Positions 9,561-28,195 are shown, counted from the stretch's first letter. The stretch is DNA of 32,000 nucleotides from Candidatus Kuenenia stuttgartensis (GCF_900232105.1 NZ_LT934425.1:2250001-2282000); one strand, 5' to 3'. Made by a program: numbers and translations. The notes: generated by a model not told the origin, from the sequence alone.

Positions 9561-9595
9561 TTTAGTAATTCAATGTTTAGGAGGTTTAATCTTTT

Positions 9596-9633
9596 GCGAC
9601 ACTATAGTTTTTTGAAAAGGACTAAAATGTTAC
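9596..9633. mobile_element. minimal/degenerate MITE copy (two ends abutting, no cargo)
   Basis: A left-TIR-like GCGACACTATAGTTTTTTGAAAA is followed directly by GACTAAAATGTTAC (9620-9633). That 14-mer is identical to the right end at 26242-26255. It is followed by AAAGCTTTT, similar to the flank at 26256. Confidence 0.5.
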
Positions 9634-10336: not shown

Positions 10337-10879
10337 TTAAGGAACATGGCGTGGCAGGGTGGAAGCAGAATGGTTTAACCACATTGCGCTACATGATTTT
10401 TGGACTTTTGCAGACATTCCATACTTGCGGTTTGACAAATTAAAATCTCTAAAATTAAGTATGGTGTCCCCTGAATTATGCCAGTGAATTTCTTTCATAG
10501 TCTTTAAACACTGCGTAGACTACAAGGGGAAACATTGCAAATTGTTTTTTAGTAAAACACGATACAAAATGTTAAGGATTCTGAAGATTGAGCGGATTTC
10601 CACTATGCACAAACCGCTCATCTTTAATATGCTGCTGTAGAAAGAAAATGGGAAAATACACAGGGAAGAGTTTATTATGAAGCTAGGGAGAAAAGCAGGT
10701 AGAATATTAAGCGTCTTTGGAGTTTAGCGAGGCCATGTCATTTTGAAAGATTTGACCTCCGGTGTCCTTGCTAAAAATAGTGCCGAGGTTGACCTTGCAG
10801 AGTAAATTGATATGAAGCAGCCTTTGGCAAGTTCAGAGAATTATTGAGGGAATACAAATCGTTATAAAACATATTGCAA

Positions 10880-11719
10880 TTATTTTTTAAGGAATACGAG
10901 CCGTATTCTATCAACTATTTTCTTCCATTTTTCGTCTGTGAAGAAACGTCTTTTTTCTTTAATTTTTTGCATATTTTCTGTTGTAATTTTCACAGTAGCA
11001 TCAGAGGCGCCGGAAATGGGTGATTTGTTTTTTTTCCTTTCTGCAGGTTTTCCAATGGATTCTTTTCTGTTCTTGTCATCTACGTAAGCTATTATGCGAA
11101 ATTGCCCTGCTTTCAGCATGTCGGTGGTGCATCCAAATGCAAAATTTGATGGTGAAAAAGAAGACGAATTAACTGTTTTTTTCAGTTTTCTTAATCCTTC
11201 TTCAACAAAAGGAATAATGATTGTGCCGGAGGGAGTTTGCGATTCCGGCAGAACTTCCATGCTTTCGGTTTGAGGCTGGGGCGGGACTCTATCAGGAATC
11301 AGACTTTCCAGAGTGTAGGACGCAGATGGGTTATTTACCAGATTATCTGCTTTCCGGAAATTTATATCGGTCCAGGGATTAAGCACCCCTGTGTAATTGT
11401 CTACTATCTCTGGCATTTTTTTCCATAAAATTTTCCTGTGAATACGACCTGTGCAAATGCCCTCCAGGGAATAAATGTCCCTGCCGAATTCATCTTTGAA
11501 CATACTGCTTTGAAGGGTAAAAAGCACAGTAGTTTCCGGAAAATTTATGCAAAAAAGCGGTTTAAGCGGGGCTTTTGCGTATGCGAAACGATATTTTTTA
11601 AAAAAATCAATAAAGCGTTCAAGCAGGTGTGTCTCTTTAGAAGAAAGTAAAGGAGACGTAACAATCCACCGGTAGTCAGCAGTCAAAGTCCTCGAATATA
11701 TGAATCGTTCCACATTCAC
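10880..11719 (-). CDS. hypothetical two-domain protein, partner of the upstream GTPase
   Basis: 279 aa. The GTG start overlaps the GTPase stop (GTGA at 11719-11716). An N-terminal domain of about 140 aa is joined by a P/Q/S/T-rich linker (PPQPQTESMEVLPESQTPS) to a C-terminal domain with a K/R-rich tail. No family recognised by eye. Confidence 0.7.
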   Translation of the reverse strand: MNVERFIYSRTLTADYRWIVTSPLLSSKETHLLERFIDFFKKYRFAYAKAPLKPLFCINFPETTVLFTLQSSMFKDEFGRDIYSLEGICTGRIHRKILWKKMPEIVDNYTGVLNPWTDINFRKADNLVNNPSASYTLESLIPDRVPPQPQTESMEVLPESQTPSGTIIIPFVEEGLRKLKKTVNSSSFSPSNFAFGCTTDMLKAGQFRIIAYVDDKNRKESIGKPAERKKNKSPISGASDATVKITTENMQKIKEKRRFFTDEKWKKIVDRIRLVFLKK

Positions 11720-12798
11720 GCAAAAAGCCTTACCCTTTTCCTGGTATAATCCATAAGTGTATCTATATGGCTTTCAAACTTAAGCAAGGATTCTTCGTCT
11801 CTCTTTTTCTTTTCCGAGGACTTGCGGGCGATTTCAGCAGCGCTTGGCCTGCCGCGTAAAAATGACCAGATTGAGTTTAATGTCCCGGCATCCTGAAGCA
11901 CCTGCTCTATGGTTTTTTGATAATCAGATATAGATTCCTTTGCCGCATTTTTCATTTGCAACAAGGAAAAGCCAAGACAAAAATAAAGAACATATTCCGT
12001 GTTAAACGGTTGGGGCAGTCCTATAATTTTGTCTTCCGCTAAAAAAGGGATATCCATAGGGCTATCCGAATCGGTTTTCGGGGTAATTTTTCTTTCTACA
12101 TTTTCTTCACCAATAACAGAAACCGGCAGGATACCGCCATTCCAGTTGCTGTTATTCCGGCAAAGTTTCACCACCGGGTCAAATACTTCCATTCCCTTAT
12201 CAAGGAGTTGTTTATAATCTTCTTCCTTCCAGCAGGAATCAACAGAATCGGCCTTGGTAAGAACAATTAAGATGTTCAATTTTCTGTTGGGGTATATTCT
12301 GTCAAACCTGTTCATTATCAGATTAATAATCTTAGCACCGGAAAAATGTCTGATTTCATCAATTCTGGTAAAATGAGTAAGATGATAAGCATCTGCAACA
12401 ATCACCACCACATTGCTTTCGATTAAGTGAAAAAACAGCGCTTCCAGTTCTTTTTCATCTCTATGTGCAGGTTTAAAAATATGTGATAAAAGCCCTCCTC
12501 TGAAGTCCACCCATTCTATATTTGTAATTTTATGGTTTGTTAGGTATTCGATTGCAAATGGATATACGGTGGTTTTATTCGTTCCGAGAGGCCAGTAACC
12601 TGCATGCTCTACGGTATTTTCCATAAAATCAACCAGTACATCAACTTCTTCATTAAAAGACGCCAATTCATCATCATTTTTTAGCCTTGGGATCAAAGCA
12701 TAATCATGGTCTGCGTTTCCCGGCGCCAGGGTGGAGGCCATTCCGTGCATGAGAGTGGTTTTACCGGACCCTGAGTATCCTAACATGGTAATTTTCAT
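11716..12798 (-). CDS. P-loop GTPase (TRAFAC class) with helical C-terminal extension, family unassigned
   Basis: 360 aa. G1 GYSGSGKT (res 7-14), G3 DFRG (res 98-101), G4 TKAD (res 181-184), and a candidate switch-I GTNKTT (res 72-77). The last roughly 170 aa have no recognised domain. SD-like GGAAAG lies upstream of the ATG. Confidence 0.75.
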   Translation of the reverse strand: MKITMLGYSGSGKTTLMHGMASTLAPGNADHDYALIPRLKNDDELASFNEEVDVLVDFMENTVEHAGYWPLGTNKTTVYPFAIEYLTNHKITNIEWVDFRGGLLSHIFKPAHRDEKELEALFFHLIESNVVVIVADAYHLTHFTRIDEIRHFSGAKIINLIMNRFDRIYPNRKLNILIVLTKADSVDSCWKEEDYKQLLDKGMEVFDPVVKLCRNNSNWNGGILPVSVIGEENVERKITPKTDSDSPMDIPFLAEDKIIGLPQPFNTEYVLYFCLGFSLLQMKNAAKESISDYQKTIEQVLQDAGTLNSIWSFLRGRPSAAEIARKSSEKKKRDEESLLKFESHIDTLMDYTRKRVRLFA

Positions 12799-13159
12799 TG
12801 CATCTTTCCTAAATAAAACAAGCCTGAAATATAAATCAACATAATACCATAATGTTAGTCAATATATTTTGGTATTTCAATTAATTTCCACAATCGAGGA
12901 ACAATCATACCTCCGAAGATATACTCAACAGGCTCATAATGTGTGAATTCAACGCTGACAGTGTGAAGACGCATTACTGAAAAAAAATATTGAGAACAAA
13001 TTCTAATATTGAATATCGAAATACGAAACAAATCCTAAATTCAAATGCTTTGAATGTTCAAAACATTTGTCATTGCGGGGAGTGGAGCGACTAAGCTTCG
13101 GGCTGGATGAGGATTGAAACCCCCAAGTTTTTCTATAATCATAATTATCCCTTCGGGGT

Positions 13160-13201
13160 TCTCCTTTTTTCCCGGAATTTTTCAAAAAACTAAAGCGTTA
13201 C
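13160..13201 (-). mobile_element. MITE end (TIR plus adjacent about 20 nt), remainder decayed
   Basis: TTTTTCAAAAAACTAAAGCGTTAC (13178-13201) is identical to the right TIR at 28172-28195. The interior CCCGGAATTTTTC mirrors GAAAAATTCCCGGG at 25999-26012. No matching second TIR was found to the left. Confidence 0.55.
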
Positions 13202-13370
13202 AATACAAATGATTTCTTACAATCCTCAAGGATATGCGATTCAAACAAACTAAATCGTGATTTATTGAGCTATATTTTATAAAATATGAGTTAATATAAT
13301 GATTAAATGTGTAATATGATCGAACAAATAAGGTTTATGAAATCAGAAATATACCAAAAGGAGGTGAATT

Positions 13371-14504
13371 ATGTCGCTTTTTTTAAAACGCATGTCTTTT
13401 GTTACAGGCTTTATGCTTTTGTATTTTATTTCCTTAAATGCATATCTTTTCGCGCAGCAAGATGATAAACAGGTGCACAAAGCGGCAATTTTTGTGGAAA
13501 ACAGGGCAGGACGCCAGTTTGATAATAAGATTGCAGTATTTGAGGATTTTATTACCAGCCGTGTTGCTGAAAAGGGGTTTAACGTCATTAGCCGTGAAGT
13601 GGTAACAGACAGTTTGAAAACCTACTCCCCAGGTGCGGCAAAAGAAAACAGACTGGATACACTTCTCAGTAACAATACATCCGCACTAAGGCTGGCACAA
13701 ATGATGAATGCCGACTATCTTATTGCCGCATCGATAAGTTCCTTTGGAACAGAAAAGAAAAAGTTTAAAGGATATGGCGTCGAAACAGTTAATTTAGTCA
13801 CCAATCTGCGTGCCAGCTACAAAATACTGGAAGGTTTACAAGGTAGCACCCTGGTTGCGGATACAATTATGGCAAGCAAATCTGAGCGGTTTACCGAAAG
13901 GAGTACGGTTGAAGATGATGACATGATGAATATGCTGCTGGATGAGTCGGCATACAGGATTGCAGAAAGTTTGGGGAGCAAGCATATTGCCCCGCCTCCG
14001 CCAAAGCCTGATTTTGTGGAAATCACCATTGCCTGCGGCATGCAAGACCTTGTGCAACTTCCGGTAAGTGTGCCTGACGTCCTGGTAAAGGAAGACAAGA
14101 CTATGGTTGTAGTGCAAAACAGCAACCTTGAAGTGCAGGTATTGGATGTAACCGTAGAACTCAACGGCGTTGTTATTGGCGCTGCACCTGGCGTTTTTAA
14201 AGCGCCACCCGGGTTAAACAAGATCCGGCTTACCCGTGAGGGATTCAGGGACTGGGAAAGAACAATTAATGTTTATAACGTACAAAGGTTGAAGGTGGCA
14301 TTGCAGATGAATGAAGCTGGCTATGCAAGGTGGAAGGATAATACCGCTTTTCTTCAGCATTTGAAAAACGGCGAAAAATTAACGGATGCCAATGTTGAAT
14401 TAATAAAGGGAGGTGCGCAGATGTTACGGCAAAGCGGATTCAAGATTGACGTAAAGGCAGATGTAGCCAAGGAAATAAACTCCATCTTCGAATTGTTCTG
14501 GTAG
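13371..14504 (+). CDS. exported protein with C-terminal PEGA domain
   Basis: 377 aa. Strong SD AGGAGG (13359-13364). Signal peptide MSLFLKRMSFVTGFMLLYFISLNAYLFA-QQ. PEGA-like motif GVFKAPPGLNKIRLTREGFRDWERTINV. The N-terminal half resembles CsgG/LpoB-type lipoprotein folds (IFVENRAG...DYLIAASISSFG). Confidence 0.75.
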   Translation: MSLFLKRMSFVTGFMLLYFISLNAYLFAQQDDKQVHKAAIFVENRAGRQFDNKIAVFEDFITSRVAEKGFNVISREVVTDSLKTYSPGAAKENRLDTLLSNNTSALRLAQMMNADYLIAASISSFGTEKKKFKGYGVETVNLVTNLRASYKILEGLQGSTLVADTIMASKSERFTERSTVEDDDMMNMLLDESAYRIAESLGSKHIAPPPPKPDFVEITIACGMQDLVQLPVSVPDVLVKEDKTMVVVQNSNLEVQVLDVTVELNGVVIGAAPGVFKAPPGLNKIRLTREGFRDWERTINVYNVQRLKVALQMNEAGYARWKDNTAFLQHLKNGEKLTDANVELIKGGAQMLRQSGFKIDVKADVAKEINSIFELFW

Positions 14505-14531
14505 CACGGAAAACCAGGAAGAAACACTTTT

Positions 14532-14657
14532 GTAACACTTTGGTATTTTGAAAAATCTCAATAATAGCGGTGTTTGCCGCATAGTGTAGGGGCGAAGCGT
14601 TTACCGTAAATTGCAATAAATGCGTTCATACCCGAACGGGCAAATGCTTCGCCCTAC
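14532..14657 (+). mobile_element. MITE-like element, left TIR plus internal palindrome, right TIR missing
   Basis: GTAACACTTTGGTATTTTGAAAAA (14532-14555), then GTAGGGGCGAAGCGTTTACC (14587-14606) paired with GGGCAAATGCTTCGCCCTAC (14638-14657). Collinear with 28045-28169. Ends 22 nt before the CsgG-like ATG. Confidence 0.7.
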
Positions 14658-14679
14658 TTTACAAGAAAGGCAGGTGTGT

Positions 14680-15582
14680 ATGAAAAAACCGACCATGATG
14701 AAAATACTTTTTTTAGGATGTGCGCTGGCGTTTTTGATGCAAACAAGGGCGTTTGCAGAAAGAGAAACAATGGGTATTGCATCCGTTAGACCGACACAAG
14801 CTATAATAGCTGGCGCTAACAGGAGTGGAAGTAGGCTTTCTTTAGACCGCGTGATGCAATCTATGAACGGGCAATTGGCAGACCGCATTAACGCAACCAG
14901 AAAATTTCAGATAGTTGCCCGTAATGATCTTGACGATATTGTTAAAGAACAGGAGTTTGCACATTCCGGAAATGTTTCCGCGGATGACAGCACCGCTGCG
15001 AAACAATTTAAGATTTCAGGGATAAAGTATTTACTCGTTGCAACAATTGATGATTTTCAGGATTATAACGAGCTTGCAACATTTAAGAAAACAGGAAGAA
15101 CCGCTACGAAACGGGTTATCAGGCTTTCATGTATCGGCAAAATATATGACACCACTACCGGCAAATTGCTGGAATCTGCCAATTTTCAGATAAGCAATAA
15201 GGACATTTCTGAAAATAAAACCTATTCGACAAGGGATGGCGATCTCAATGAAGCGCTGTTAGTGGGAATTGCACGCAAAATGGCGGATAAAATTGCTCAA
15301 AGGATGACAGATGTGATTTTCCCTCCAAAAGTACTAAGTAAAAGAGATAACCGGATTACTATTAACCGGGGAGATGAAACTGATATTGCTTCAGGTCAGA
15401 TATGGGACATCTTTGCAGTGGGGGATGAATTGATTGATCCCGATACAAACGAATCCCTCGGCAGGGAAGAAATCCTGGTTGGCAAGGTGAAAATTGTTAA
15501 TATACTCCCGAAGGTATCGACGGCTGAGATTATAGAAGATCACGGGATTGATAAAGGGGCAATAGTGAGAAAAGCGCAGTAA
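14680..15582 (+). CDS. CsgG/HfaB-family-like exported (lipo)protein
   Basis: Start moved to ATG 14680 (MKKPTMMKILFLGCALAFLMQTRAFA), because the 14620 extension reads through the MITE palindrome. FQIVARNDLDDIVKEQEFAHSG and YLLVATIDDF are CsgG-family-like. Has a C-terminal beta-rich extension. Confidence 0.65.
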   Translation: MKKPTMMKILFLGCALAFLMQTRAFAERETMGIASVRPTQAIIAGANRSGSRLSLDRVMQSMNGQLADRINATRKFQIVARNDLDDIVKEQEFAHSGNVSADDSTAAKQFKISGIKYLLVATIDDFQDYNELATFKKTGRTATKRVIRLSCIGKIYDTTTGKLLESANFQISNKDISENKTYSTRDGDLNEALLVGIARKMADKIAQRMTDVIFPPKVLSKRDNRITINRGDETDIASGQIWDIFAVGDELIDPDTNESLGREEILVGKVKIVNILPKVSTAEIIEDHGIDKGAIVRKAQ

Positions 15583-15646
15583 AATTTAGGCAGTAGGCAG
15601 TCTGCAATCGGCAAATTGCGGATTGCAGATTTCCATGCGGGTTGAT

Positions 15647-15680
15647 GTTAAGGTAGAGACGCATTGCATGCGTCTCTACA
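15647..15680. repeat. GTTAAGGTAGAGA-hairpin repeat, copy 1
   Basis: GTTAAG followed by an 11-bp perfect stem, GTAGAGACGCA (15653-15663) / TGCGTCTCTAC (15669-15679), with loop TTGCA. A near-identical element lies at 21241-21275. Confidence 0.7.
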
Positions 15681-15752
15681 AAAATATTGAAAATGCCTAA
15701 ACATTAAATTGGGTGAATTGCCTTAACATAATTTTATGACAAATTTGCTGGT

Positions 15753-17318
15753 ATGAGACACAAGAGAGAAACTATATGGCATCACATTTTATTGAGTATG
15801 ACGGTATCGATGTTGTTATGTGCCGGATGCGCCAGTTACAATATGCAAACACAGAGGATAAACCAAAAGTGGAAATCCGGCAATTTCCATGAGGCGGCAG
15901 CGTTAATATCAGAACAGGCAGAAAAAAAAGGTGAATCAAAGGACGCTGTTGTGTGGAGATTGGAGCAGGGGGCAGTCCTGCGAACTGCAGGGAAATACGA
16001 AGAAAGCAACAAGGCATTTGATCTGGCGGAAGAGCTTATTGATAAGTATGAGGATAAGGCAAAGGTAAAAGTTGCCCGCGAGACGTTAGCAACTGTCACT
16101 AACCTTGCAATGCTGCCTTATGAAGGTTTTGCGTATGACAAAATTATGATGAATACCTACAAAGCGCTTAATTATCTTCAACTGGCAGAGTATGAAAAGG
16201 CGCGTGTCGAACTTTACCGCGCACATCAACGACAGGAAGATGCTGTCTATATAAATTCAGCCCGAATTGAAAAAGCGCAGGAAGAAGGGAAAAAGCAAAA
16301 CTACAATATTAATCTTGCCCAAATTAATAGTGACAGTAAATTTAAGCAACAATATGAAAATAATTTTTCAGACCTTGAGCGGTTTAAAGCCCTTGAGCTT
16401 TATGTCAACCCTCTTACTGTTTATCTCGATGCCCTCTATTTTATGGCGCAGGCAACAAGCAGTTCAGACCTGGAGCGATCACTGAAATCATTTGAACGGG
16501 TGCGTAGCATGATTGGAGAAAATGCATATATCAATCAGGATATTGAAATGGTGAGACAAAGAATGATCGGGCAACCACTGCAGGCTACCACCTATGTTAT
16601 CTTTGAAACAGGGCAAGCGCCGGCAAGGGATAGCATTCGTATTGATTTGCCGCTTTTTTTCATAATGCCTGGCCTTCCTTACTTTGGTGCGGCGATTCCT
16701 AAACTTGTATATAATAATGATTTTATCTCCTCTCTGAACATTTCACATGACGGTCTGACAGAGCCGGCAATGTTGTTGTCAAGCATGGATGCCGTTATTG
16801 CGCAGGATTTTAAAAATGAATTATCTCTCATAGTTACTAAAACACTTATTGCTTCTGCAATAAAGGCTGGTGCAGCATATGGCGCATACACAGGCGTAAC
16901 GGGCGGCAACCAAAAAAATACAACGGCAGGGCTTGTCGTGATGTTTGCGGCATTCGTATATCAGGCGGCAATGAATCAGGCTGATATAAGGACATGGCAG
17001 ACCCTGCCTAAGGAATTTCATTTTTGCCGCTTTCCTACACCGGTTGACCGGAAAATTGAACTGGAACAACCGTATTCGGGTTTCAAATTACCGGTAACAA
17101 TAGATGATGGTATAATGAATGTGGTATGGGTTAAATCCATAAGCAGGAATAGTCCTTTTACGGTTGCCCAATTCAGGCTAAAAGATAGTCCGGAAGGGAT
17201 AAACCTGCCGGTAAGGCGCCCAGAACCGGTAGTTGCGGCTACAGATGCTAAGGCCTTTTCCGCAGAACAAGATGTTCAAAAAGAGAAAAATACAGAGACA
17301 AAACATGAAATGCCGTAA
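15753..17318 (+). CDS. TPR-like lipoprotein (COG3014-like)
   Basis: 521 aa. Lipoprotein signal ...MTVSMLLCAGC-ASYN and an N-terminal TPR-like helical region. The C-terminal part has a predicted membrane-associated Gly/Ala-rich stretch. The start (15753 versus internal ATG 15798) is uncertain. The stop TAA (17316-17318) lies inside a MITE TIR. Confidence 0.6.
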   Translation: MRHKRETIWHHILLSMTVSMLLCAGCASYNMQTQRINQKWKSGNFHEAAALISEQAEKKGESKDAVVWRLEQGAVLRTAGKYEESNKAFDLAEELIDKYEDKAKVKVARETLATVTNLAMLPYEGFAYDKIMMNTYKALNYLQLAEYEKARVELYRAHQRQEDAVYINSARIEKAQEEGKKQNYNINLAQINSDSKFKQQYENNFSDLERFKALELYVNPLTVYLDALYFMAQATSSSDLERSLKSFERVRSMIGENAYINQDIEMVRQRMIGQPLQATTYVIFETGQAPARDSIRIDLPLFFIMPGLPYFGAAIPKLVYNNDFISSLNISHDGLTEPAMLLSSMDAVIAQDFKNELSLIVTKTLIASAIKAGAAYGAYTGVTGGNQKNTTAGLVVMFAAFVYQAAMNQADIRTWQTLPKEFHFCRFPTPVDRKIELEQPYSGFKLPVTIDDGIMNVVWVKSISRNSPFTVAQFRLKDSPEGINLPVRRPEPVVAATDAKAFSAEQDVQKEKNTETKHEMP

Positions 17319-17410
17319 CACTTTGGATTTTGAAAAAGTAGGGGCGAAGTATTTGTTGTAAATAGTCATGAAGGCGTTAATACCCAAACCGGCAAATGCT
17401 TCGCCCCTAC
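17315..17410 (+). mobile_element. MITE-like element, left TIR plus palindrome (short form), right TIR missing
   Basis: GTAACACTTTGGATTTTGAAAAA (17315-17337) is joined directly to GTAGGGGCGAAGTATTTGTT (17338-17357), which pairs with CCGGCAAATGCTTCGCCCCTAC (17389-17410). Confidence 0.7.
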
Positions 17411-17462
17411 AAGGGAACAAGATTGAATGACCAGCAATTAAACAATTTATAAAGGAGGCAGC

Positions 17463-17891
17463 ATGAAAAATATTACACTATTATTAGCAGGGATGTTTAT
17501 TGGCATAACCTTTTTTTCTTCATGCACCACAGTTAACACCGTGGAGCGTGAAGAGCCTGTAGGAACAAAGCAGGTGGTTACTGACAAACGTGTTATTACC
17601 GATGCTACGCTTAATAAAAAGGTCAGCATCGTTGGATTGAACGAAGCCGTAACGCCGGGTGGATTTCTTCAACTGCAGATAGAAATACTTAACAGAAAAA
17701 ATTCCATGCAGGAATTTACTTACAAAATAGAATGGTTCGATGAGAATGGTATGCGTGTGGATACACCTGCATCTGTATGGGTTCCAAGACAAATAGAGGG
17801 GCAAGAGACACTTTCTATTACTGCGACAGCGCCGAAACAGACTGCGCGTGATTTTCGTGTGAAATTTATGGAAAACGTCAGGGATAATTAA
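17463..17891 (+). CDS. YcfL-family (DUF1425) periplasmic lipoprotein
   Basis: 142 aa. SD AAAGGAGG upstream and lipobox FFSSC. LQLQIEILNRKNSMQEFTYKIEWFDENGMRVD...WVPRQIEGQETLSI matches the YcfL pattern. Confidence 0.7.
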   Translation: MKNITLLLAGMFIGITFFSSCTTVNTVEREEPVGTKQVVTDKRVITDATLNKKVSIVGLNEAVTPGGFLQLQIEILNRKNSMQEFTYKIEWFDENGMRVDTPASVWVPRQIEGQETLSITATAPKQTARDFRVKFMENVRDN

Positions 17892-17909
17892 GAGAAGAAA
17901 GGATACAAG

Positions 17910-18503
17910 ATGAAATTACCGTTAACCGTAGTTGTGTTGCCTGCAGTAGCATCTTTATTTTTTGCCGGTTGTTCTACCCATACAAGATATGTTGAGACCG
18001 GAGGCCCGCGTACCATCGTCACTACTGATATAAACATTCAGGACTTTTCGTATGCGGCGGAGGAAATGATTAATTCGCTTCTGGCGTCGGGTGCGTTGGA
18101 TACTGCACCAATCCAGCCGGCAATGCTTGCGATAAGCCGCATTACAAACAATACTACTCAACAGATTGATACTGACCTGTTAATAAAAAAGATCAGGGTT
18201 GCGCTGAATATAAGTGGAAAGGCGCTGACAACTACTACAATCGGATTGGGTGGCATAGCCGAAGACCCTCTGGCGCAAGGCATACAACAGGAGAAAGAAT
18301 TTTATAGCGACAAAACAGAGCCGCAGCGCATGCCGGATTTCTCGCTTTCAGGCAAGATCATTGAAAAACGTGAACGGCAAAATGACATAAGACAAGTAAC
18401 TTATACCTTTCAACTTTCCCTCACGAATAACGCAGGCCTTGCCGTATGGGAAGATGAAAAGGAACTCTCAAAACAAAGCAAAAAAGGCGTTATTGGATGG
18501 TAG
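17910..18503 (+). CDS. LpoB-like (COG3417) outer-membrane lipoprotein
   Basis: 197 aa. Lipobox FFAGC-S. LAISRITNNTTQQIDTDLLIKKIRVAL and a C-terminal LSLTN..G..VWEDEKEL resemble the LpoB family. ycfL-lpoB adjacency also exists in E. coli. Confidence 0.6.
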   Translation: MKLPLTVVVLPAVASLFFAGCSTHTRYVETGGPRTIVTTDINIQDFSYAAEEMINSLLASGALDTAPIQPAMLAISRITNNTTQQIDTDLLIKKIRVALNISGKALTTTTIGLGGIAEDPLAQGIQQEKEFYSDKTEPQRMPDFSLSGKIIEKRERQNDIRQVTYTFQLSLTNNAGLAVWEDEKELSKQSKKGVIGW

Positions 18504-25889: not shown

Positions 25890-25979
25890 ATTAAATATAG
25901 TCAAACAAGTCAGGTTTTTGAAACTTAAACCGGCAAATGCAGGCGATTCGCACTACATTTTTAGAAAATCAGAAGCTTT

Positions 25980-26255
25980 GTAACACTTTAGTTTTTTGAA
26001 AAATTCCCGGGATAGGAAAAATACCATGTAGCCCCGTCAGGGGCGGTCTGTTTGTAGCGCAATAAAATTCAATAAGGTAAATAGCTCCGTAGGAGCGGCC
26101 TGTCCATATTCAGGCAGACCTGTTTAATATGGATTTACAAGAGACAGGTCGCTCCTAACGGAGCTAATATCTGTTATAATATCCTATTTTGCTACAAACA
26201 GGCTGCTCCTACGGAGCTTATAGGTAATACGTTTTTCAAAAGACTAAAATGTTAC
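25980..26255 (+). mobile_element. complete 276-bp MITE-like foldback element with candidate 8-bp target-site duplication
   Basis: TIRs are GTAACACTTTAGTTTTTTGAAAAA (25980-26003) and TTTTTCAAAAGACTAAAATGTTAC (26232-26255). Flanking direct repeats GAAGCTTT lie at 25972-25979 and 26256-26263. The interior is a long imperfect palindrome with three copies of a roughly 21-nt subrepeat (26084-26104 inverted; 26143-26164 and 26198-26217 direct) and a central hairpin CCATATTCAGG/CCTG..AATATGG. Confidence 0.75.
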
Positions 26256-26422
26256 GAAGCTTTTGGCTATACATATCGCAGCAAAGCCGTAACCAAAAAG
26301 GATTTAACCACAAAGGGCCTAGCGCGGCCTTTGGCCGCAACCAAAAAGGTGATTTTTAGTTTATTATAAAGTATAGTAGTATCCTCGTAAATAGTAATCA
26401 GACAATTTGGAGGACACTACTT

Positions 26423-28044: not shown

Positions 28045-28195
28045 GTAACAATTTAGTCTTTTGAAAAATTCCAATAATAGCGATGTTTGCCGCATAATGT
28101 AGGGGCGAAGCATTTGCTGTAAATTGTCATAAATACATTCATACCCAAACGGGCAAATGCTTCGCCCCTGGTTTTTCAAAAAACTAAAGCGTTAC
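28045..28195 (+). mobile_element. complete 151-bp MITE-like element (TIRs plus internal 19-bp-arm palindrome)
   Basis: GTAACAATTTAGTCTTTTGAAAAA (28045-28068) and TTTTTCAAAAAACTAAAGCGTTAC (28172-28195). Internal GTAGGGGCGAAGCATTTGC (28099-28117) pairs with GCAAATGCTTCGCCCCT (28153-28169). No obvious target-site duplication. Confidence 0.75.

Follow-up and report, generated by a model that had tools for sequence, protein, structure and literature searches.

We analyzed a 32,000-nt stretch of Candidatus Kuenenia stuttgartiensis DNA (NZ_LT934425.1:2250001-2282000; hereafter the window), in which two overlapping minus-strand genes encode a 360-residue GTPase and a 279-residue partner protein, here termed PAR (Table 1). 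The two open reading frames (ORFs), their lengths, their start codons, and the GTGA overlap that joins them can be read directly from the sequence and are as described in an original prediction made from the DNA alone. On the minus strand, the junction reads c-GTGA-atg, with the GTG of PAR and the TGA of the GTPase sharing 4 nt, and an AAGG is sited 8 nt 5′ of the PAR GTG. This arrangement supports the translational coupling first proposed. Hypothetical proteins of Ca. Kuenenia stuttgartiensis match the GTPase at 100% identity (KsCSTR_00850 in one strain), and PAR is likewise 100% identical to KsCSTR_00860; the literature searched contained nothing relevant to these locus tags or to anammox defense systems. 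Comparison with other Kuenenia-clade copies gives ratios of nonsynonymous to synonymous substitution rates (dN/dS) of 0.07-0.10 for the GTPase and 0.26-0.33 for PAR, which thus evolves ≈3 times faster. Both genes are under purifying selection and, on the strength of these ratios, both ORFs are functional genes. That they might instead have arisen by chance, or be pseudogenes in decay, within a region poor in ORFs and bearing repeats could be argued from the long flanking spacers with their repeat fragments and from the GTG start and low-complexity linker of PAR. This idea is already refuted by conservation and dN/dS, the latter far under 1: both ORFs are intact in every Kuenenia genome sampled, their motifs are kept across phyla, and the fold of the GTPase is predicted with high confidence.

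Table 1. Features of the gene pair and its surroundings, in window coordinates. 2-TM, two-transmembrane; AF2, AlphaFold2; MITE, miniature inverted-repeat transposable element; L011, locus from Kuenenia sp. Bin_40.
Feature	Position	Strand	Basis or remark
GTPase gene, 360 aa, ATG start	11716..12798	-	ORF read from sequence
PAR gene, 279 aa, GTG start	10880..11719	-	ORF read from sequence
GTGA stop/start overlap, GTPase/PAR	11716..11719	-	sequence
Shine-Dalgarno-like AGGAAAG, 5 nt 5′ of GTPase ATG	12804..12810	-	sequence; function inferred
GTPase G1/P-loop, GYSGSGKT, residues 7-14	12757..12780	-	G7, G12, K13, T14 invariant in 70 sequences
GTPase switch I/G2 region, PLGTNKTT, residues 70-77	12568..12591	-	conservation; switch I assignment inferred
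GTPase G3/Walker B, W-V-D-F-R-G-G, residues 96-102	12493..12513	-	conservation
GTPase G4, L-T-K-A-D-S, residues 180-185	12244..12261	-	K182 and D184 invariant, T/S181 conserved
GTPase C-terminal helical hairpin, residues 268-355	11734..11997	-	AF2 model
PAR N-terminal conserved domain, residues 1-130, YSRTLTADYRW and KDEFGRDIYSLEG	11330..11719	-	alignment
PAR variable P/Q/S/T-rich linker, residues 131-168	11216..11329	-	53% P+Q+S+T; aligns poorly across family
PAR middle conserved region, residues 169-213, IIIPFVEEGLRKL...FAFGCT	11081..11215	-	F195, G196 conserved
PAR basic C-terminal tail, residues 214-279, ending WKKIVDRIRLVFLKK	10883..11080	-	32% K+R, pI 10.3
Upstream spacer, 572 bp, without 2-TM gene	12799-13370		ORF scan, tblastn
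Downstream spacer, 543 bp, L011 synteny break at ~10771	10337-10879		blastn
Solo 26-bp MITE-type terminal repeat TTTTTCAAAAAACTAAAGYGTTACAA	13179-13203	+	≥7 copies in window
Complete MITE-like elements, 296 bp and 151 bp	25970-26265; 28045-28195		terminal inverted repeat consensus TTTTTCAAAAAACTAAAGYGTTACAA

The GTPase had been called an orphan, a label that profile searches do not bear out. Pfam returns a DO-GTPase2 match (E = 2.4e-5, 24.6 bits) that covers residues 114-192 only and falls just under the gathering score of this model, 27 bits. All 12 close homologues, drawn from an index of 5.8 billion proteins, match DO-GTPase2 (best E = 2.9e-9) and five of them match DO-GTPase1, and the GTPases of the more distant, doubled relatives described below reach 53 bits, which is over the Pfam gathering threshold. 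Because all 12 homologues match and the distant relatives score 53 bits, yet the window protein is itself subthreshold, the GTPase, as judged by profile, belongs to the DO-GTPase superfamily (Pfam PF19993/PF19975) as a divergent member, with WxDYRGG plus TKxD as its signature. On genomic evidence alone, DO-GTPases were proposed to act as the switch in “GTPase-centric” conflict systems (Kaur, Burroughs, Iyer & Aravind 2020, eLife 9:e52696). The Ras, Arf, and MglA profiles of Pfam find no match in the window GTPase, nor do the Dynamin_N and LeoA/BC models, and a PDB sequence profile search returned P-loop-level or noise matches, with no sequence-level relative among solved structures.

The nucleotide-binding motifs G1, G3 (core DFRG, residues 98-101), and G4 (core TKAD, residues 181-184) lie at the residues predicted for them and are invariant or nearly so across 12 to 70 homologues. 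Within G3, W96, D98, Y/F99, R100, and G101 are invariant or nearly invariant among 70 sequences from single and doubled systems alike, this stretch also being the search pattern that recovered all loci discussed here. In the putative switch I region, the superfamily has P70 without exception and T73 almost without exception, and members of the close family all share T76 and T77. An acidic residue, E95, sits three residues before the Walker B Asp, and a Gly, not a Glu, follows the DxxG motif; the E95 position is D or E in 43 of 47 single-type and 12 of 23 doubled sequences. Kaur et al. (2020, eLife 9:e52696) report a conserved Walker B glutamate in the superfamily, a position that may differ from E95.

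An AF2 model computed from an alignment of the 12 homologues (predicted local distance difference test [pLDDT] 81.5, predicted template modeling score 0.83) places a G domain and an extra β-meander up to about residue 260, followed by a C-terminal hairpin with helices at residues 268-303, 306-315, and 320-355. Because the G domain and meander extend this far, the helical tail comprises ≈95 residues (268-355) in the model rather than the ≈170 first proposed. A Foldseek search of the PDB with this model finds TRAFAC GTPases only; the top full-length match is the G domain and helical bundle of mitofusin-1, followed by EF-Tu/eEFSec, HflX, Gtr1/2, Arf/Rab, and G-alpha, and a viral structure library yields giant-virus Ran, Ras, and dynamin proteins only. 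Together with the conserved TKxD, the predicted fold agrees with the TRAFAC-class assignment made at the outset. The protein begins at the P-loop strand (MKITMLGYSGSGKT), without a Cys-rich N-terminus.

PAR is a rare family, so far as profile searches can tell, without annotation and dedicated to the GTPase. The window protein was said to resemble nothing recognizable, and no profile library (Pfam, NCBIfam, or PADLOC) contains a match to it. An exhaustive hidden Markov model search of 1.84 billion representatives recovers 80 clusters at E ≤ 1e-3, with homology spanning residues 1-213 and member lengths of 193 to 648 aa; a word-indexed homologue search with the partner alignment added no new members, and any Pfam match is found in only 1 of 75 family members. 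The family signature consists of an N-terminal h-h-Y-[ST]-R-[ST]-x-x-x-D-Y-R-W, then D-x-x-G-R-x-I-Y-x-L-x-G, and later FAFG. A 19-sequence alignment shows no variation at R10, D15, Y16, W18, D76, or R80 and almost none at R17, L85, or G87. The P/Q/S/T-rich linker and the lysine- and arginine-rich tail noted earlier are borne out by composition (Table 1), and PAR as a whole has an isoelectric point (pI) of 9.7. The tail is variable across the family: in the Brocadia clade it is basic and strongly amphipathic, with hydrophobic moments of 0.67-0.88, and in the window protein its moment is 0.59, no higher than that of shuffled sequences. We considered an amphipathic C-terminal helix as a general feature of PAR proteins and rejected it, as the median hydrophobic moment is 0.5.

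The only structure model of PAR was built from a 4-sequence alignment and has a pLDDT of 35, and the fold matches obtained with it are unreliable for that reason. The modeled N-domain runs β-(loop)-α-β-β-β-α, an order that we presume to resemble that of a longin domain, and its best match is TagF/PA0076 (E = 5.5e-3, probability 0.97), which we take to be a longin-like fold, with FLCN-FNIP2 and GATOR1 lower. These matches weakly hint that PAR has the longin-like fold of a GTPase regulator. GTPases are classically bound and regulated through longin and Roadblock domains (PMC3521125). A profile search of PDB sequences with PAR finds no similarity to any solved structure, and Robl_LC7 (PF03259) in Pfam is unmatched by the window PAR and by 75 family members. 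In the systems described by Kaur et al. (2020, eLife 9:e52696), the GTPase partner is a three-domain GAP1 protein (GAP1-N1 or GAP1-N2, GAP1-M, and GAP1-C). The four corresponding Pfam models match none of more than 90 PAR sequences (the window PAR, 75 family members, and 15 PAR-like partners from distant or doubled loci) in a scan that contained no GAP1 positive control, and we did not encounter a canonical GAP1 in the distant loci. PAR nonetheless fills the GAP1 position, 3′ of the GTPase and coevolving with it.

Pattern-based scans with the GTPase profile, run over GTDB genomes and JGI metagenomes, yielded 73 further loci and reveal that the pairing of GTPase and PAR is obligate. A gene with the PAR motif comes next after the GTPase in all 5 assessable loci of the Kuenenia clade, in 21 of 22 of the Brocadia clade, and in 18 of 19 other single-cassette loci; two seeming exceptions in Brocadia genomes (L020 and L027) are intact on manual inspection. 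Such a gene also follows the GTPases of the distant and doubled loci inspected, with a TIR-domain fusion (L066) having none. The two genes share 4 nt, mostly ATGA, in all 5 Kuenenia-clade loci, in 21 of 22 from the Brocadia clade, and in 10 of 19 other single-cassette loci. The two proteins coevolve: distances among GTPases and among PAR N-domains are correlated with a Mantel r of 0.957, and with r = 0.81 when distant pairs only are considered.

The usual cassette contains three genes, encoding a small two-transmembrane (2-TM) protein, the GTPase, and PAR. The 2-TM protein (74-118 aa, charged at its N-terminus, with the 2-TM hairpin at its C-terminus) is encoded directly 5′ of the GTPase in 22 of 23 Brocadia-clade and 13 of 19 other loci and in none of four Kuenenia-clade loci. 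No ORF with a TM segment is present in the upstream spacer of the window, and tblastn with all small-protein homologues finds no 2-TM remnant in the Kuenenia-clade upstream spacers. The operon of two genes first proposed is thus present in the window and, on this comparison of loci, is a reduced form of the three-gene cassette, the 2-TM gene having been lost in the Kuenenia clade.

Distant relatives are “double” systems with two paralogous GTPase-PAR pairs. In two of these (L076 and L077), one partner fits the PAR profile and the other fits a second profile, c22; hhalign of the two profiles gives an E value of 4e-4. An HSP70 is often encoded in doubled systems, as are two dynamin-like proteins with matches to the PADLOC models LeoA (7e-29) and LeoBC, and a Ser/Thr kinase is added in L061 and L068. 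The LeoA/LeoBC dynamin system, Eleos, is experimentally antiphage (Millman et al., bioRxiv 10.1101/2022.05.11.491447). An HSP70-like ATPase, two DO-GTPase/PAR-like pairs, and two LeoA/LeoBC-type dynamins are encoded together in large operons of L038 (Rivularia), L069, L075, L083, L039/L040 (Bacteroidales), and L084; the literature searched contains no description of this composition. In L066, a single 847-aa protein (L066:4203-6746) carries a weak ParA/MinD-like N-terminus, a TIR_2 domain (1.2e-10), and a DO-GTPase1 domain (28.5 bits).

Outside anammox bacteria, the cassette is scattered in Clostridia, Marinomonas, and metagenomic contigs, and database sequences show a rare and patchy family, with 80 clusters in 1.84e9 proteins. 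One locus (L002) lies in a dense defense island with a Cap2-like E1, JAB, Endonuclease_NS, an LlaJI restriction-modification system, and an integrase nearby, and another (L009) adjoins DndB and phosphoadenosine phosphosulfate (PAPS) reductase genes. The doubled system L084, on Geminocystis plasmid pGM01, adjoins an annotated antiphage dCTP deaminase, a dGTPase, and HigB. When the neighbors of 12 other loci were pooled, PADLOC models matched MzaA (7e-76), PDC-S04 (1e-109), RT_UG29, mad2/3/6/8, and MkoA; the association with defense genes is one of individual loci rather than a statistical enrichment.

These contexts, together with the dynamin links of the doubled relatives, the TIR fusion, and the L001 cassette described below, suggest that the family is an NTPase-switch conflict or antiphage system, a reading to which we assign a probability of roughly 55% and in which a role in defense is plausible from context. 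The original prediction had proposed such a system; the contexts of the wider family speak for it, and the housekeeping setting in anammox bacteria does not. Likewise, the patchy distribution and co-location with defense genes that it proposed to look for are found outside anammox bacteria, whereas in the Brocadiaceae the cassette is kept among housekeeping genes.

A number of findings weigh against this conflict-system interpretation. A PADLOC run, proposed as a check, returns no defense model for the window pair, PAR being unmatched and the GTPase giving only a P-loop-level match to mad8 (E = 0.02), and PADLOC-DB v2 matches none of the Brocadia GTPase, PAR, and 2-TM proteins. The Kuenenia form has no recognizable effector domain, Pfam matches being confined to 1 of 75 PAR-family members; the PAR model, with its pLDDT of 35, is unreliable, so that a regulatory fold is a hint; and the literature searched contains no experiment on a DO-GTPase system and nothing relevant on tested TRAFAC defense systems. 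Many neighbors of the non-anammox loci are ordinary metabolic genes. Among anammox bacteria, the Brocadiaceae retain the cassette in four genera or more: Kuenenia, Brocadia (many species), Jettenia, and Loosdrechtia. The Brocadia neighbors are housekeeping genes, with a MiaB-like gene upstream and a hemerythrin gene plus a B12-radical-SAM or RNR gene downstream, and the window pair is flanked by POR subunit, TetR, and DinB genes on one side and by an envelope-lipoprotein cluster on the other. The composition of the pair is host-like, with a GC content of 0.397 as compared with 0.423 for the window and GC at third codon positions (GC3) inside the range of the neighbors. Conservation, neighbors, and composition are together atypical of a mobile defense island; on the basis of this host-like GC and GC3, we rejected recent horizontal transfer. 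The pair had been taken for an accessory insertion; judging from its presence in four genera, tight clades, housekeeping neighbors, and host-like GC, it is not a recent one in this lineage.

The same anammox data bring to the fore a different explanation, in which the cassette is a cell-biological GTPase module retained by the lineage that acts at a host membrane, in membrane dynamics, envelope or compartment organization, or polarity, and not in immunity. By analogy, such a module could be compared with MglA/MglB or with small dynamin-like machines, with PAR as its regulator and, outside Kuenenia, the 2-TM protein as a possible anchor. Brocadia, Jettenia, and Loosdrechtia cassettes form a tight clade from which the Kuenenia clade is separate, and these sequence relationships are consistent with long vertical inheritance in the Brocadiaceae. 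The Brocadia context is partly syntenic (MiaB-like upstream; hemerythrin with radical SAM or RNR downstream), and the housekeeping and envelope neighbors in the window, strong purifying selection, and host-like composition point the same way. So do the amphipathic and basic Brocadia PAR tails, which are like membrane-targeting helices, the helical hairpin of the GTPase with its mitofusin-1 top match, and the weak longin-like hint for the PAR N-domain.

This host-module explanation must be set against the scattered occurrence of the cassette in Clostridia, Marinomonas, and metagenomic contigs, where it is found in defense islands and beside insertion sequence (IS) elements. The locus also varies among Kuenenia species. 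By blastn, the window is collinear with Kuenenia sp. L011 from position 10881 to at least 18000, the end of the compared region, and beyond the PAR stop only 109 bp (10771-10879) are common to the two; the K. hertensis locus differs from the window on both sides. A housekeeping GTPase module, raised at the outset as an outcome to be checked, therefore finds agreement in the wide occurrence of the pair in Brocadiaceae and in the longin hint but not in synteny within Kuenenia. The Kuenenia clade dispenses with the 2-TM gene, and PAR diverges fast, with Kuenenia and Brocadia proteins ≈28% identical for PAR and ≈42% for the GTPase. No matches were found in other anammox families, including Scalinduaceae, although the scans were pattern based and absence is not established; and the MglA and Roadblock models of Pfam are unmatched. 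On balance, we regard a host module of this kind as possible, with odds of about half those of the conflict system. The two readings are compatible, since all the data would agree with a conflict system that had been domesticated.

A third possibility is a selfish or mobile-element module, such as an addiction pair or a function in exclusion or element maintenance, that later became stranded in anammox chromosomes. In L001, the cassette lies between IS21- and IS3-type transposase genes, doubled relatives are present on cyanobacterial plasmids, genes that we read from their sequences as MobC and a relaxase lie beside L036, MITE-type solo repeats bracket a 3.6-kb segment that contains the window pair, and synteny with L011 breaks 110 bp beyond the PAR stop. 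Against this stand the lack of any relative in 50,697 phage records (GenBank tblastn) or in IMG/VR contigs, the occurrence of relatives in just 2 of 72,556 plasmid records, and the lack of resemblance of either protein to a known toxin or antitoxin in Pfam, NCBIfam, and PADLOC. Long vertical retention under purifying selection in the Brocadiaceae is a further point against it, and we consider such an origin improbable. As a separate observation, PAR in L001 (L001:9068-11539) is apparently split by an IS3-family insertion (HTH_Tnp_1 plus rve), which separates an N-terminal fragment of 32 aa from the other 304 aa, the latter beginning at the GRxIY motif.

We compared the cassette with four sets of known systems. 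It shares with DO-GTPase/GAP1 systems the GTPase superfamily, by profile, and a dedicated, coevolving partner gene immediately 3′ of the GTPase; paralogous “double” GTPases and TM components are frequent in both, and the HSP70, kinase, and TIR links of the relatives echo themes of the Kaur paper. According to that work (eLife 9:e52696), 60% of the GTPases carry N-terminal zinc ribbon(s), and the systems have a GASH or FNIII-repeat component. The cassette GTPase, in contrast, has no N-terminal zinc ribbons, PAR is short (about 215-470 aa) and matched no GAP1 model (in the scan without a GAP1 positive control), and neither the cassette nor its window neighbors give a GASH or FNIII match, and these three differences set the cassette apart from DO-GTPase/GAP1 systems. 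In addition, the minimal form has just two or three genes, the doubled relatives carry LeoA/BC-type dynamins (the word “dynamin” occurs 0 times in the Kaur paper), and doubled forms are found in cyanobacteria, from which that paper calls the systems nearly absent.

Eleos (LeoA plus LeoBC) is likewise GTPase based, with a proposed action at membranes; LeoA/BC-like genes are physically linked to doubled GTPase-PAR pairs (L038 and related loci), and the window GTPase has a predicted helical hairpin and a top fold match, mitofusin-1, from the dynamin superfamily. The window GTPase is nevertheless much smaller (360 aa) and matches neither Dynamin_N nor LeoA/BC, no dynamin genes are present in the window, and PAR is without a counterpart in Eleos. 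MglA/MglB, the main alternative put forward in the original prediction, is also a two-gene operon of a GTPase and a regulator, and a longin/Roadblock-related α/β fold of PAR is possible on the weak hint of the pLDDT-35 model. Neither protein matches the MglA or MglB/Roadblock families, however: the window GTPase is closest to DO-GTPases, has 360 residues with a helical hairpin and belongs with the G3 sequence DYRGG, and PAR lacks a Robl_LC7 match, is longer, and has extra middle and tail regions. Finally, the longin platforms of GAPs (GTPase-activating proteins) and GEFs (guanine nucleotide exchange factors) (FLCN-FNIP, GATOR1 Nprl2/3, and DENN) and TagF provide the best, albeit weak, fold matches of the PAR N-domain, set against the model pLDDT of 35 and the lack of PAR sequence similarity to solved structures.

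For the cassette as a conflict system, we consider a nucleotide-gated switch the most likely mode of action. The overlapping genes would be cotranslated and their products would form a complex, in which the PAR N-domain, possibly longin-like, may dock on the switch regions of the GTPase and control the nucleotide cycle, with R10, R17, and R80 as candidate arginine fingers. The variable C-terminal part of PAR could sense a trigger or tether the complex, probably at a membrane. The GTP/GDP switch would then gate an output, which in the three-gene form may be the 2-TM protein, as membrane effector or anchor, and in the doubled form the dynamins and HSP70. Because the Kuenenia clade has lost the 2-TM gene, the basic tail of PAR may have taken over membrane or target binding there; another possibility is that in the Brocadiaceae the system has adapted to a host function. 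Anammox bacteria have unusual internal membranes and few genetic tools. A bolder proposal, which we hold to be unlikely as a whole, is that PAR is an unrecognized prokaryotic longin-type GAP or GEF and that the pair is the core of a GTPase-switch immune class, with HSP70/dynamin, kinase, and TIR versions, that was domesticated in the Brocadiaceae as a membrane module.

In the conflict-system reading, the 2-TM, GTPase, and PAR cassette offers a far simpler and experimentally tractable core for the computationally predicted DO-GTPase systems. The PAR family is new to Pfam, NCBIfam, and PADLOC and also accompanies the dynamin (Eleos)-linked versions; if PAR regulates the GTPase or acts as its sensor, this small cassette would offer a good way into GTPase-gated bacterial immunity. 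Long retention in anammox bacteria and the loss of a component in Kuenenia raise the prospect that a conflict system was adopted for a host function.

The spacers on either side of the pair contain only short, unconvincing ORFs, and the flanking genes are on the plus strand, opposite to the pair, which confirms the two ORF-poor intervals described for this locus. The upstream spacer is 88.6% identical to that of Kuenenia sp. L011. MITE remnants had been reported in both spacers; a single solo terminal repeat is present in the upstream one, and the downstream one has no MITE-type terminal repeat. Solo intergenic MITE-type ends are found at 9594-9618, 13179-13203, and 14530-14556, of which the first two are inverted, 84% complementary, and enclose 3.6 kb with a DinB-family gene, PAR, and the GTPase. 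The complete MITE-like elements elsewhere in the window have terminal inverted repeats of 24 to 34 nt, 88% complementary, and internal palindromes.

A noncoding core of ≈70 nt (window 12998-13068) lies ≈200 to 270 nt 5′ of the GTPase start as read on the minus strand, with counterparts at L024:4010-4079 and at about 9730-9800 in L011. It contains the palindrome ATGTTTTGAA-CA-TTCAAA(G/A)CAT and is 84.5% identical between Kuenenia and a distant Brocadiaceae metagenome-assembled genome, in the same orientation 5′ of the cassette in both, whereas the cassette proteins of this pair are just ≈42% and ≈28% identical. Other Brocadia-clade cassettes lack the core at this 5′ position. As RNA it does not form a stable fold (z = -0.82), and it may represent an operator or a piece of a mobile element. 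Nearby, window 13084-13120 holds a CRISPR-repeat-like sequence, GTTTCAATCCTCATCCAGCCCGAAGCTTAGTCGC, which matches Rfam CRISPR-DR9 at 19.4 bits (gathering 45; E = 0.75) and is the only Rfam match, and a subthreshold one, in the spacers. It is present as a single copy in the window and also in L011 and may be an orphan or degenerate repeat or a product of chance.

The envelope cluster (window 13371-18503, plus strand) encodes a PEGA-domain protein, a CsgG-like protein, a 521-aa protein without a Pfam match, a DUF1425 protein, and an LpoB-like protein, and stands beside the GTPase in Kuenenia sp. L011 and not in K. hertensis. On the other side, the place of the window TetR and DinB genes is occupied in L011 (13705-16977) by a gene for a 1090-aa STAND-like regulator with a P-loop, MalT-like TPR, and BTAD.

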